From a virus (lineage: Duplodnaviria; Heunggongvirae; Uroviricota; Caudoviricetes), in the IMG/VR virus record IMGVR_UViG_2671180417_000009: a stretch of DNA of 4,248 nucleotides. One strand, 5' to 3'. Under the pieces are notes generated by a model. That model was not told the DNA's origin and did no database searches. It saw only the letters and a list, made by a program, of their open reading frames with translations. Of the stretch, positions 1,409 to 4,202 are shown piece after piece. Position 1 is the stretch's first letter. Each line of letters begins with the position of its first letter. The position numbers and the translations under genes were made by a program.

Positions 1409-1943
1409 ACAGGTTTGTGAGGCTCTGGATGCCTGGGTATGCCGACCAGGAATGACACAGGAGCAGGCGACGATATTAATCACGGAAGCATTCTGGGCTC
1501 TGAAAGAACGCCCGAACATCGATGTTCAACGCGTCACGTTTAATGATGGCGAGGTTGATCAACGGGCGCTGGGCGTTAACCGGGTGAAGATATTCGAACG
1601 CTGGAAAGCTATCGACACCAGGGATAAGCGGGAAAAACTCACGGCGCTGATTCCGGCAATTATGGAGGCTATCCGAATTAGTGATTTCAGGTTGTATCGT
1701 GAGATCAGTGATGGAAAAAGCATTACGTACATGATCGCCGGATTAAACAAAGAATATGGCGATGTGGTGGAGTCCGGGCTGCTTTTTGCGGATCCAGCTG
1801 TTGTGGAACGTGAGACTGACGAGCTTATAGAAAAAGCTATTGCTTTCAAGCATGCGTATCGTCAGCAATATCTATATTACTTTGCAGATAAACAAATGTC
1901 TGCCAGGGGTTCGTATGAGTATCGATGCACTACGATGGGCTAA
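1392..1943 (+). CDS. YdaT-family protein (CII-like regulator / reported toxin family), 183 aa
   Basis: Track ORF 1392..1943 (+); ATG overlaps the dicC-like gene by 17 nt, with a G-rich stretch upstream. N-terminus MKITPEQVCEALDAW and the segment DKREKLTALIPAIMEAI resemble Rac YdaT (MKI..., ...REKIQKLIPAIL...) as I recall it. Third gene of the rightward operon, the position a cII analogue would occupy. Longer than Rac YdaT (about 140 aa) through a C-terminal extension. Confidence 0.8.
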   Translation: MKITPEQVCEALDAWVCRPGMTQEQATILITEAFWALKERPNIDVQRVTFNDGEVDQRALGVNRVKIFERWKAIDTRDKREKLTALIPAIMEAIRISDFRLYREISDGKSITYMIAGLNKEYGDVVESGLLFADPAVVERETDELIEKAIAFKHAYRQQYLYYFADKQMSARGSYEYRCTTMG

Positions 1944-2955
1944 AAAGGTGAAAACCGGCAGTTCATCCAGTAAGTCAGTATTGACCTGGCTTGCTGATAT
2001 GTGCGGTGCCGATTTGTGTGCATACCCGTCTGTATCTGCCCTGGCAGAAGTAACGGAACTGAACAAAAAGACAGTGCAGGACAGCTTACGACACCTGATG
2101 GAGATTGGGTTAATTGTTGATACCGGTGAGAGAAAAGGCAGAACAAAGCAAATTGTGGTGTACCGACTTATCGGTGTAGAAGAAAGTGTTGCCGAGCCTG
2201 AATACACCCAAAAACGGGAGTCTTTAAAGGTGGGTAAAATTGGTGCTGTTAATAAAAACAGTACCGAAAATGGTTATGTTTCAGCACAAAAGAGCCCCAA
2301 AAACGGAACTCTTAGCTGCATGGAAAATAACCAAAGACACCCAAATTTTCCATCAAAGACACCCAAAAACGGATCACGGAACCCAAAGGAACCCAAAGAT
2401 CTAAACACCACACATAACGCACGCGAGAGTGCTCCGACCAGTGAGCAGAAAGTTTTGTCGTTACAGGCTGCACCTCCTGTATTCCTGGATGGCCTGAGCG
2501 AACCCATCGGAAAATTTCCGATGACCGATAGCTGGCATCCGTCGCGGGATTTTCGACGACGGGCTGCGTTGTGGGGGATGGCTTTGCCGGAGACAGAATT
2601 TACGCCTGCTGAACTTGCCGCATTCCGGGATTACTGGAGTGATGAGGGGAAGGTTTTTACGCAGGTTCAGTGGGAGCAGAAATTCGCCCGTCACGTAAAT
2701 CACGTCAGGGCGCAGGTTAAACCAGTCAGCAAGGGGGTAAACCATGCAGCAGCACCAGGTGGCACCGCATCACGGGCAGTTCAGGAAATTCGGGCAGCAC
2801 GTGAGCAGTGGGAACGTGAAAACGGATTTATCAGCGACGGAAACGGTCTGGAAGCTGTGGGAACTCATGGGGGAGGTTTATTCGAACCGCTGGACCCAGA
2901 AGAACGGGGCCGCACCTTCGAAGCTCTGGATTGCACAGATTGGCGCGATGACTGA
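1915..2955 (+). CDS. Replication initiator, lambda O-like: N-terminal winged-helix domain plus DnaT-like C-terminal domain (about 347 aa)
   Basis: Same frame as track ORF 1840..2955, but the preferred start is ATG 1915 (AGGGG SD at 1905-1909, 5-nt spacer), giving MSIDALRWAKKVKTGSSSSKSVLTWLADMCGADLCAYPSVSALAEVTELNKKTVQDSLRHLMEIGLIVDTGERKGRTKQIVVYRL, a wHTH-like N-terminus. C-terminal region DSWHPSRDFRRRAALWGMALPETEFTPAELAAFRDYWSDEGKVFTQVQWEQKFARHV resembles the DnaT C-terminal / YdaU (DUF1376) family. The start choice is an inference; the TTG at 1840 and ATG at 1852 lack an SD. Confidence 0.8.
   Translation: MSIDALRWAKKVKTGSSSSKSVLTWLADMCGADLCAYPSVSALAEVTELNKKTVQDSLRHLMEIGLIVDTGERKGRTKQIVVYRLIGVEESVAEPEYTQKRESLKVGKIGAVNKNSTENGYVSAQKSPKNGTLSCMENNQRHPNFPSKTPKNGSRNPKEPKDLNTTHNARESAPTSEQKVLSLQAAPPVFLDGLSEPIGKFPMTDSWHPSRDFRRRAALWGMALPETEFTPAELAAFRDYWSDEGKVFTQVQWEQKFARHVNHVRAQVKPVSKGVNHAAAPGGTASRAVQEIRAAREQWERENGFISDGNGLEAVGTHGGGLFEPLDPEERGRTFEALDCTDWRDD
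2204..2398 (+). repeat. Cluster of short direct repeats inside the O-like gene (candidate origin iterons)
   Basis: CCCAAA cores start at 2207, 2296, 2340, 2362, 2382 and 2392. AAAGACACCCAAA occurs twice (2333-2345, 2355-2367); CCCAAAAACGG three times (from 2207, 2296, 2362); GGAACCCAAAG in tandem (2378-2388, 2388-2398). Spacings 89, 44, 22, 20 and 10 bp are near multiples of a helical turn. AT-rich stretch at about 2225-2290. The repeats fall in the interdomain linker-coding part of the gene, as the lambda ori does in O. Confidence 0.4.
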
Positions 2956-3409
2956 GCAGCAAATCCGACAGGTCTGCCGCCAGTGCATGGACCGCTGCCG
3001 GGCGGGTGAAACATGGCCTCCGGACCTGGCTGAGTTTGTGGCACTGATTTCGGAAAGCGGAGCCAATCCATTCGGTCTGACGGTGGATGCTGTGATGGAG
3101 GAGTACCGCCGCTGGCGCAATGAGTCCTGGCGATATGACGGAAGTGATAAGTACCTGTGGTCTCAGCCTGTGCTGTATCACATTTGCCTCGAGATGCGTT
3201 CAAAGGGGATTGAGCGCCAGATGACCGAAGGGGAATTAAAACGGCTTGCAGAACGGCAGCTGGCGAAATGGGCAAAGCATGTTAGTAACGGCCTGAGCGT
3301 TCCGCCAGTCCGGCGACAACTGGCGGCACCCAAACGCCCGTCGGGGCCAACGCCAATTGAGTTGCTGAAACAGGAATATGAACGCCGGAAAGCGGCTGGG
3401 TTTGTTTGA
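2744..3409 (+). CDS. Replication protein P-like (lambda P family helicase loader), 221 aa if started at 2744
   Basis: Track ORF 2744..3409 (+). Its C-terminal two-thirds align by eye with lambda P: WPPDLAEFVALI ~ LPSPGQFVAWC, VDAVMEEYRRWRN ~ LVDMVYEYCRKRG, GELKRLAERQLAKWAKHVSNG ~ AELRRKAADELVHMTARINRG. ATG 2744 has a strong SD (AAGGGGG at 2731-2737, 6-nt spacer) and gives a lambda-P-like length (lambda P is 233 aa). Alternative starts: ATG 2867, and ATG 2948, which overlaps the O-like stop as ATGACTGA; the start is uncertain. No Walker A motif, so not a DnaC-type loader. Confidence 0.75.
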   Translation: MQQHQVAPHHGQFRKFGQHVSSGNVKTDLSATETVWKLWELMGEVYSNRWTQKNGAAPSKLWIAQIGAMTEQQIRQVCRQCMDRCRAGETWPPDLAEFVALISESGANPFGLTVDAVMEEYRRWRNESWRYDGSDKYLWSQPVLYHICLEMRSKGIERQMTEGELKRLAERQLAKWAKHVSNGLSVPPVRRQLAAPKRPSGPTPIELLKQEYERRKAAGFV

Positions 3410-3527
3410 GTTGAGAAGTAATTTTTACCGGGAGGAAATTTATGGAGACTGTTTTTGACGCACTGAAAGCGATGGGAAAAGCCACGTCGGTAGAGCTGGC
3501 TGCGCGCTTGATATCAGTCGTGAAGAA

Positions 3528-4202
3528 GTGCTGAACGAACTATGGGAACTGAAAAAGGCTGGTTTCGTTGATAAAAGCGCGTACACCTGGCGTGTGGCTG
3601 ATAACAACGTTCAGCAGGAACAGCCAGCGCAGGCAGAACTGCCGGAAGAAATCACCACAGCAACAGTAGCGAAAATCTCAGAGTGCGATTTAACCGCGAC
3701 GATTGAACAACGAGGACCACAAACGGCTGATGAGCTGGCTACGTTTTTCGGCATCACATCACGCAAAGTGGCTTCAACGCTGGCAATGGCAATCAGCAAA
3801 GGTCGTCTGATTCGCGTAAATCAGGGCGGTAAATTTCGTTACTGCATACCGGGCGATAATTTACCAGCAGAGTCGAAAGCAGCATCGGTAGCGGAAACTG
3901 ATGGTAAGGCCTTTCCTCAGACCGCAGGTGTTGCGTTACCAGTACAGGAGGCTGCAACACAGGAAGATATTAAAACAGAAACTGTGGCGGACATTGTGCA
4001 GTCGTTGCCATCGTTTACCGAAACGCAAGCAGATGAGCTGATTTTTCCGTCCCTGCGCAGGACAAACCTGGCGCTGCGCAGGGCGAAAAGTGATGTTCAG
4101 AAGTGGGAGCGAGTCTGCGCCGCGCTGCGGGAGCTGAACAAGCACCGGGATATTGTTCGACAGATTACTGATTCTTCCCGCCATGTTGCATCGGAAAAGT
4201 GA
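3528..4202 (+). CDS. Hypothetical prophage protein with winged-helix-like N-terminus; longest ORF of an apparently frameshifted gene
   Basis: Track ORF 3528..4202 (+), which begins at GTG with a poor SD. The frame is open back to 3459 with no start codon, and reads ...[32 protein letters not shown]. Upstream ORF 3442..3534 (ATG, GGAGG SD 6 nt upstream) in another frame encodes [30 protein letters not shown]. Joining the two at about 3508-3512 gives one continuous wHTH-like N-terminus, so this is likely the 3' part of a gene disrupted by a 1-nt indel. Function not recognised. Confidence 0.55.

Follow-up and report, generated by a model that had tools for sequence, protein, structure and literature searches.

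Probable iterons within the replication initiator gene of a lambdoid Escherichia coli prophage: a candidate origin of replication

The window analysed here (the whole stretch of 4,248 nucleotides of the viral record IMGVR_UViG_2671180417_000009, numbered from its first letter) is the immunity and replication region of a lambdoid prophage of Escherichia coli. Its replication initiator gene contains, between the parts encoding an N-terminal winged-helix domain and a C-terminal DnaT-like domain, an array of short direct repeats that an earlier note, made from the sequence alone, took for a candidate replication origin lying inside the initiator gene. Judged by the comparisons presented below, that reading appears to be essentially right, with corrections to the make-up of the array, to its helical phasing and to the nature of its AT-rich stretch.

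The repeat array in the initiator gene

The initiator is known in RefSeq as a DnaT-like ssDNA-binding (single-stranded DNA-binding) domain protein, and it matches the PHROG family phrog_1032, ‘replication initiation protein’, with E = 4e-88. In Pfam it is matched by DnaT (E = 1.4e-17, amino acids 201-267) and weakly by HTH_36 (E = 3e-4, amino acids 36-67). The assignment of the C-terminal domain is solid (PF17948, 63.6 bits versus a cut-off of 25; E = 8.6e-19 to PDB 6aep, the solved C-terminal domain of DnaT), and the protein is not a full-length DnaT, its score with the NCBIfam equivalog model being 92.5 versus a cut-off of 201. At the N-terminus HTH_36 (PF13730) scores 23.6 bits, just below its cut-off of 25, but all 11 aligned N-terminal homologues match it at E<=0.01 (best E = 1.9e-13), the Acinetobacter homologue, 53% identical, reaching 46 bits; K-T-V and D-T-G-E-x-x-G-x-T are invariant among these homologues. 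A single-sequence AlphaFold2 model of the initiator (mean predicted local distance difference test score, pLDDT, 40.5) was uninformative and was not used. The gene is 97% identical to that of the ‘phage replication protein’ of the PPompW prophages of Shiga-toxin E. coli, and at least 80% of it is matched in 907 of 5,426 complete genomes of E. coli, O157:H7 and further Shiga-toxin strains among them. It is followed by a P-type loader gene (PF06992), the gene found beside this C-terminal half being labelled ‘replication protein P’ throughout E. coli; its counterpart in the Edwardsiella phage EPP-1 is a full-length P (E = 3.8e-58). The P-like protein of the window has 153 amino acids and covers only positions 50-161 of the lambda P profile, and the full-length P of EPP-1, a phage with the same class of iterons, has 245. 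No promoter or terminator was found above chance level inside the initiator gene.

All six CCCAAA cores reported previously, with starts at 2207, 2296, 2340, 2362, 2382 and 2392, are exact. The window contains eight copies of this hexamer on both strands versus 3.2 expected, and the six on the + strand are packed into 191 bp, where about 0.07 would be expected (2e-10 for at least six, by a simple Poisson estimate). The longer repeat units proposed along with them are borne out as well: CAAAGACACCCAAA is found twice (at 2332 and 2354), a 19-nt family three times (at 2200, 2289 and 2355), CCCAAAAACGG three times in exact form within the window, and GGAACCCAAA as a perfect 10-bp tandem at 2378-2397. 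The location of the repeats in the linker between the two domains was also correctly recognized, since they occupy codons 96-162, between the helix-turn-helix match and the DnaT domain. However, the six cores do not form one set of equivalent repeats. Three of them (2207, 2296 and 2362) belong to full iterons with the consensus AAAGACACCCAAAAACGG, one (2340) to a conserved variant unit, and the last two to a separate terminal element.

This distinction emerged from a position weight matrix (PWM) that was built from 27 copies in non-E. coli relatives only and then run on the window, where it found four sites, with cores at 2296, 2207, 2362 and 2263 (20-33 bits), the next best match scoring 7 bits and the simulated maximum being 17.8. 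The site at 2263 (TACCGAAAATGG) is a degenerate iteron that had been missed in the initial list of cores. Thus, four PWM-supported repeats of about 18 bp and one conserved variant, all in the same orientation, lie at 2200-2380 (codons 96-156), between the two domains (table 1). The variant unit at 2340 (CACCCAAATTTTCC) has counterparts at the same penultimate position of the array in relatives, namely CACCCAATTTTGG in the Edwardsiella phage and TCCCAACAATTCC in Acinetobacter, and the position of iteron 1 (offset 293 in the open reading frame, ORF) is kept in all enteric relatives. From 45 enteric copies the extended consensus aAA[G/C]ACA-CCCAAAAACGG-[G/T]A..[G/C]TTA was derived, with AA at positions -6/-5 in 45 of 45. 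The cluster is unique within the prophage: run on a complete prophage of 44 kb whose initiator is 97% identical, the PWM recovered these four sites alone (29-32 and 21 bits), with no other position scoring above 9.

The proposal that all cores share roughly one helical face held in part. Cores 2263, 2296, 2340 and 2362 are spaced at exact multiples of 11 bp (33, 44 and 22), but 2207 and 2296 lie on opposite faces, because the 89 bp between them correspond to 8.5 turns at 10.5 bp per turn. In relatives the iteron spacing is not conserved (17, 18, 22, 24, 26, 30 and 33 bp, often multiples of three). Phasing is approximate and is not a conserved property, and duplication of units that preserves the reading frame explains much of the regularity of the spacing.

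Cores 2382 and 2392 do not belong to iterons but to a GAACC-type tandem, which aligns with the conserved CGGAATCTACCAAGGAACCATAAAGATCT of relatives. On the coding strand the AT skew after the array peaks at +0.68. A GAAC-type tandem is found right behind the array in every relative, as exemplified by three copies of AACCAGTCATAT in phiV10 (locus L027, 1810-1845), two copies of AGAACAGTAGGAACAGT in Bcep176 (locus L026, 1942-1977) and the tandem at offset 481 of locus L025, and it is the least stable part of the gene in most of them. A nearest-neighbour stability scan, which for lambda O correctly recovered the known AT-rich region as its least stable 30-mer, puts the corresponding minimum just past the array in 9 of 12 relatives. 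The AT-rich stretch noted earlier at about 2225-2290 is real (GC 37-38% at 2201-2350), but it is rejected as a distinct spacer, since it is made up of two iteron units that have decayed and whose counterparts in relatives are good iterons; the 30-mer of lowest stability in the window gene, 2248-2277, also falls inside the array. The position equivalent to the AT-rich region of lambda would instead be downstream, at approximately 2376-2410, which by its position is the likeliest candidate for a melting or single-strand binding site. In E. coli 2013C-3277 (locus L024) one 10-bp GGAACCCAAA unit, equivalent to window 2378-2387, is lost, and the resulting frameshift leaves the initiator in two pieces, annotated as a helix-turn-helix protein and a DnaT-like pseudogene; the tandem appears to be prone to slippage.

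Table 1. Positions of the repeats, domains and genes of the window.
Feature	Position	Strand	Remarks
Iteron 1, GAATACACCCAAAAACGGGAGTCTTT	2200-2225, core 2207-2217	+	PWM 31.3 bits; encodes T-Q-K-R-E
Decayed iteron unit, AAAGGTGGGTAAAATTGGTGCTGTTA	2226-2251	+	Aligns with the good copy AAAGACACCCAAAAACGGTGCTGTTA of phage EPP-1; PWM -1.6
Degenerate iteron, AAACAGTACCGAAAATGGTTATGTTT	2256-2281, core 2263-2273	+	PWM 20.1 bits; overlaps the least stable 30-mer
Iteron, AAAGAGCCCCAAAAACGGAACTCTTA	2289-2314, core 2296-2306	+	PWM 33.3 bits; encodes S-P-K-N-G
Conserved variant unit, AAAGACACCCAAATTTTCCAT	2333-2353, core 2340	+	Encodes H-P-N-F-P; unscored by the full-iteron PWM
Last full iteron, AAAGACACCCAAAAACGGATCACGGA	2355-2380, core 2362-2372	+	PWM 28.5 bits; encodes T-P-K-N-G
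Terminal A-rich element	2376-2410	+	Two 10-bp GGAACCCAAA units (2378-2397), then GATCTAAAC; includes cores 2382 and 2392
Module junction	2389-2422		Rac-like homology starts here, directly after the repeats; partial megablast matches from query positions 475-508
Replication initiator gene, 346 amino acids	1915-2955	+	ORF; winged-helix N-terminus, repeat-encoded linker, DnaT-like C-terminus
N-terminal winged-helix (HTH_36-type) coding region	1915-2199	+	Presumed iteron-binding module; Pfam HTH_36 in homologues
DnaT-like ssDNA-binding domain, amino acids 201-267	2515-2715	+	Pfam PF17948, PDB 6aep
Short lambda-P-like helicase-loader gene	2948-3409	+	PF06992, E = 4.5e-15; overlaps the initiator stop codon
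DicA-like repressor gene	697-1104	-
Cro-like gene	1181-1408
YdaT-like gene	1392-1943
DUF1627 gene	from 3442

Conservation of the repeats as DNA and their link to the N-terminal domain

The motif CCCAAA(AACGG) occupies all three reading frames, so that the same DNA is read as TQKRE, (S/T)PKNG and HPNFP. The codons are ACC CAA AAA CGG (T-Q-K-R) at core 2207, CCC AAA AAC GGA (P-K-N-G) at cores 2296 and 2362, and CAC CCA AAT (H-P-N) at core 2340; in the terminal element they are AAC CCA AAG at 2382 and CCC AAA GAT at 2392. Comparison with homologues, which the earlier note had put forward as the way to check its proposal, gave the result that it anticipated, namely, repeats kept at the nucleotide level where the flanking coding sequence is saturated with synonymous changes. 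Between the window and eight relatives the N-terminal codons retain 68-77% amino acid identity with just 36-49% of synonymous codons identical, and synonymous sites are thus saturated. The 17-mer of the first iteron is nevertheless 82-94% identical in seven of the eight (59% in the remaining one, L006).

A codon test led to the same conclusion. Sites were chosen by peptide alone, as P[KE]NG in the linker of ten loci, and their codons were compared with those elsewhere in the same genes. Proline is CCC in 25 of 25 cases versus 5 of 97 elsewhere (Fisher, 2e-21), lysine AAA in 16 of 16 versus 68 of 147 (1.5e-5) and asparagine AAC in 25 of 25 versus 48 of 70 (6e-4), while glycine is never GGC (0 of 25 versus 64 of 184; 1e-4), all four values being upper bounds on significance, since the copies share descent and their independence is overstated. 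The direction of the codon bias is nevertheless unambiguous. Taken together, the comparisons of homologous sequences show the repeats to be under selection as DNA, irrespective of the frame in which they are read. Within E. coli, variation was surveyed in 58 haplotypes, drawn as near-identical E. coli prophages from a scan of viral contigs with the family alignment (best 80 of at least 566 relatives) and used for this polymorphism count, not as a sample of diversity; iteron 1 (2207) and the last one (2362) are invariant in this sample. The window itself carries two minority bases beside the 2296 iteron, G at 2292 and C at 2295, and a unique A at 2407.

The distribution of the motif was followed by scanning the N-terminal 97 amino acids against one genome per species, which yielded 20 loci with the motif right behind the domain. 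In all enteric ones it is present in five to seven copies, on the coding strand only and with almost none elsewhere in the 3-kb loci. The combination of motif and N-terminal domain is found with a DnaT-like C-terminus in Enterobacter, Kluyvera and Scandinavium, with a Phg_2220_C C-terminus followed by a full-length P in Edwardsiella (including phage EPP-1), Plesiomonas and Serratia, and with a third type of C-terminus in Acinetobacter, where the copies are slightly altered (AGTCCCAACAACGG, TCCCAACAATTCC) and again occupy three frames (VPTTV, SPNSG, FQQF, VPTIP). Homologous N-terminal domains, 34-58% identical, are also present in phiV10/epsilon15-like phages, Vibrio phage H20, Burkholderia phage Bcep176 and Acinetobacter phages such as AP22. 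As in the window, the same or a slightly altered repeat followed by a tandem GAAC-type element stands behind the domain in phiV10 (CCCAAAAACGGGA, six to seven copies), H20 (a 24-bp tandem with CCGAAAACGGTAC) and Bcep176 (AACAGTCCCAAA, seven copies, A/T-rich despite the GC-rich genome). Repeat number and spacing in these phages differ from those of the window, as do the C-terminal domains or partner genes where they were examined (Acinetobacter, Bcep176). Among further representatives from viral contigs, 15 of 17 have at least three + strand copies in the linker, with 0-3 elsewhere in the locus. The initiators of all these phage groups are annotated as ‘primosomal protein’ or ‘replication initiation protein’, and no origin or repeats are annotated at that site in the phiV10-, H20-, Bcep176- and Acinetobacter-type records examined.

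The same motif thus accompanies at least three unrelated C-terminal domains. The upstream neighbours vary too (a YdaT-like gene in the window, Rha/Ash in Serratia, ORFs without family match in EPP-1 and Acinetobacter), so that only the domain encoded directly ahead of the repeats accompanies them throughout. The converse exchange is provided by the Rac-type prophages of E. coli, in which the C-terminal half is 92% identical to that of the window at the DNA level and the P gene is the same, but the N-terminal half is unrelated to that of the window (BLASTP E = 45) and about eleven TGTCACGAC repeats take the place of CCCAAAAACGG. Because the repeats differ when the N-terminus differs and the C-terminus is kept, the N-terminal domain with its repeats forms one exchangeable unit and the C-terminal domain with P another. 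These sequence comparisons show that the repeats are tied to the N-terminal domain and swapped along with it, independently of the C-terminal domain. The labour is divided in the same way in lambda O, where origin specificity resides in the N-terminus and the interaction with P in the C-terminus.

In the Rac-like ydaU-type gene of E. coli URN1 (locus L002) the TGTCACGAC repeats recur at 10-bp spacing in two clusters, one within the N-terminal coding part (2153-2215) and the other just before the module junction (2435-2490). They are likely to be the iterons of the Rac-like initiator class and are possibly related to oriJ, the replicon of the Rac prophage of E. coli K-12, whose YdaU and YdaV resemble the pair in the window in the C-terminal half (DNA identity about 86-92%), in the P-like partner and in the presence of short direct repeats right before the same junction, and differ from it in the unrelated N-terminal half and in the sequence and two-cluster arrangement of the repeats. 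For oriJ no sequence-level description was found in the literature searched, the papers that mention it giving no sequence.

A lambda-like origin and the alternatives

The region 2200-2410 is probably the replication origin of the prophage, resembling ori-lambda and placed inside the initiator gene, with a probability that may be set at about 0.75 on the basis of the sequence comparisons. In the proposed mechanism, the initiator's own N-terminal winged-helix domain would bind the array, whose iterons of about 18 bp (AAAGACACCCAAAAACGG) all have the same orientation and each contain an A5 tract, and the bound array would form an O-some-like complex. Three units of the array are full copies; of the others, one is degenerate, one decayed and one a conserved variant. 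The A-rich GAACC-repeat element at 2376-2410, and possibly also the weakly paired decayed units at 2226-2281, would then melt, and the DnaT-like C-terminal domain, together with the adjacent P-like protein, would recruit the host DnaB helicase. Initiator binding, melting site, helicase recruitment and origin activity are all inferred.

The comparison with lambda brings both likenesses and differences. Lambda O contains four 18-bp iterons at gene offsets 349-433, spaced by 20, 24 and 23 bp, with the AT-rich region next to them. The array shares its placement with ori-lambda and with the six-iteron origins of the Shiga toxin (Stx) phages 933W and P27, its repeats of about 18 bp running in one orientation through the middle of the initiator gene, behind the part encoding the DNA-binding N-terminus. 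As in lambda and the Stx phages, the copy number varies among relatives. Also as in lambda, the repeats fall in different frames and yield a K/N/P-rich linker (IPQNEGKSPKTRD in lambda), the initiator gene is followed by one for a P-type loader, and in most relatives the segment of lowest stability lies behind the array. The iterons themselves have the same design of C-run, A-tract, CG and G-run, with the A-tract between the C and G runs (ATCCCTCAAAACGAGGGA in lambda, ACACCCAAAAACGGGA in the window), a likeness that is to be read as resemblance and not as proof of common descent. In contrast, the initiator of the window has a DnaT-like C-terminus, the spacer between C-run and G-run is 6 nt instead of 9 nt with a weaker dyad, the spacing of the repeats is wider and irregular (22-56 bp versus 20-24 bp), and the segment behind the array is A-rich and not AT-rich. 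The initiator does not match the lambda O family PF04492 at E<=0.01, its best BLASTP match to lambda O has E = 2.7, and hhalign gives a probability of 2%, with an alignment that covers the same helix-turn-helix stretch of the two proteins. As neither BLASTP nor the profile comparison is significant, homology to lambda O is not claimed; however, both proteins match the PHROG profiles 678 and 345, which hints at a remote relatedness.

A further analogy may be drawn with iteron plasmids, in which winged-helix initiators (RepA of pPS10, pi of R6K, TrfA of RK2) act with direct repeats beside a melting region. Their iterons, however, lie outside the rep gene and usually next to DnaA boxes, and with an intragenic array and no excess of DnaA boxes the window does not correspond to a plasmid-type iteron replicon. 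No published description of the motif or of the origin was found, older subscription literature being outside the scope of the search; the exact motif was retrieved only from unrelated primer lists, and the Eru paper on the replication regions of Stx phages does not mention iterons.

Several observations, besides the shared descent of the copies used in the codon test, weigh against the region being an active origin of the type proposed. The segment after the array in the window has a GC content of 42-50% and is not AT-rich, and 2389-2418 ranks only fourth in instability within the gene, so that the melting site is uncertain. Within E. coli variation is only weakly depleted in the iteron cores: 6 of 55 core positions are polymorphic, positions 2304-2306 vary and the 2296 copy reads CAG, not CGG, in 7 of the 58 haplotypes. 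Matches to DnaA boxes in the gene are at chance level (four with one mismatch versus 2.9 expected; 67 of 200 shuffles reach four). Many such prophages are also decaying, as exemplified by the 10-bp deletion in E. coli 2013C-3277 and by a frameshifted neighbour gene in the window, and the origin may no longer be in use.

Other roles for the repeats have been considered against this background. The one that retains some weight, although it is unlikely, is that the initiator-bound sites serve mainly autoregulation or copy control, by blocking transcription or by handcuffing, and that initiation takes place elsewhere in the prophage. Such roles are generally known for the iterons of plasmids and of Vibrio chromosome II, and the lack of a clearly AT-rich segment beside the window array would agree with them; but the motif does not cluster anywhere else in the 44-kb prophage, and the same 9 of 12 relatives have their least stable segment behind the array, as in lambda, where sites of this kind are the origin. 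That the repeats are just a low-complexity peptide (xPKNGxV, often of 11 codons) in a disordered linker, spread by in-frame tandem duplication and devoid of a function as DNA, would account for the many spacings that are multiples of three (18, 24, 30 and 33 bp) and for the recurrence of P-K-N-G from E. coli to Acinetobacter. It is hardly compatible with the retention of the DNA motif in frames that give TQKRE, PQKRD, HPNFP, VPTTV and FQQF, with the fixed synonymous positions (CCC 25/25, AAA 16/16, AAC 25/25, never GGC) or with an A/T-rich motif kept in a GC-rich Burkholderia phage, and a pure peptide repeat is largely refuted by the codon data, which leaves it very little probability.

The exact coincidence of the end of the array with the recombination junction could instead point to a recombination hotspot at the module boundary, or the repeats could bind another protein, such as a repressor, host IHF or DnaA, or a partition protein. 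The variable neighbour genes, with the N-terminal domain in cis as the sole constant partner, and DnaA-box matches at chance level argue against another binder, and the iteron model itself predicts a junction where the origin-specificity module ends; these explanations are considered as improbable as that of the peptide. Finally, CCCAAAA fits the slippery pattern X-XXY-YYZ in two copies, and another frame is open at 2240-2404, as would be needed for programmed ribosomal frameshifting to a shorter initiator. Since the motif occurs in all three frames, most copies are out of the slippery register; moreover, there is neither a downstream structure nor a conserved alternative ORF, and conservation extends well past the heptamer. 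A frameshift site is therefore rejected, with a probability that is close to nil.

Neighbouring genes and significance

Some features of the surrounding genes deserve mention. In the DicA-like repressor HTH_3 is the only domain, an S24 peptidase domain being absent, and SOS cleavage of the kind undergone by lambda CI may not apply to it. Its counterpart in EPP-1 is annotated as LexA-like. Four copies of CCTAAG/CTTAGG (at 581, 617, 1130 and 1156; 1.3 expected, with 5 of 200 shuffles reaching four) all fall within the two AT-rich intergenic regions that flank the repressor gene and are candidate operator half-sites. The DUF1627 gene (3442-4202) carries a 1-bp deletion near 3506 (GCGCG-CTTG versus GCGCGACTTG in two relatives), as a consequence of which the frame opened by the ATG at 3442 closes near 3532, leaving only an ORF at 3528-4202 that starts with GTG; this reflects either a pseudogene or a sequencing error.

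From the comparisons of initiator genes it is very likely that a lambda-type intragenic iteron origin is present in a different, widespread family of initiators. The design as such would not surprise a specialist, having been known from lambda for decades. The array would nonetheless offer a clean natural case of dual coding, in which putative DNA-binding sites dictate the amino acids of a linker in three frames. Where the gene records name only a DnaT-like, primosomal or replication protein, an origin defined by sequence is a concrete target for studies of how prophages replicate and are induced; it is also of use in deciding which cryptic prophages are still able to replicate (in the variant with the 10-bp deletion the full initiator cannot be made), and it provides a basis for classing replication modules by origin specificity.

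In a broader and evenly balanced proposal, the winged-helix domain and its CCCAAAAACGG-type iterons would form an old, portable origin-specificity cassette of temperate phages of Enterobacterales, Vibrio, Acinetobacter and Burkholderia that has repeatedly been fused to different helicase-recruiting C-termini. The cassette may be a distant sister of ori-lambda, and the second conserved element at its 3' end, the GAAC-type tandem, may be the true melting or single-strand binding site. If the cassette is indeed portable in this sense, sequence could suffice to identify the origin and the replication-compatibility group for a large share of the prophages of proteobacteria.

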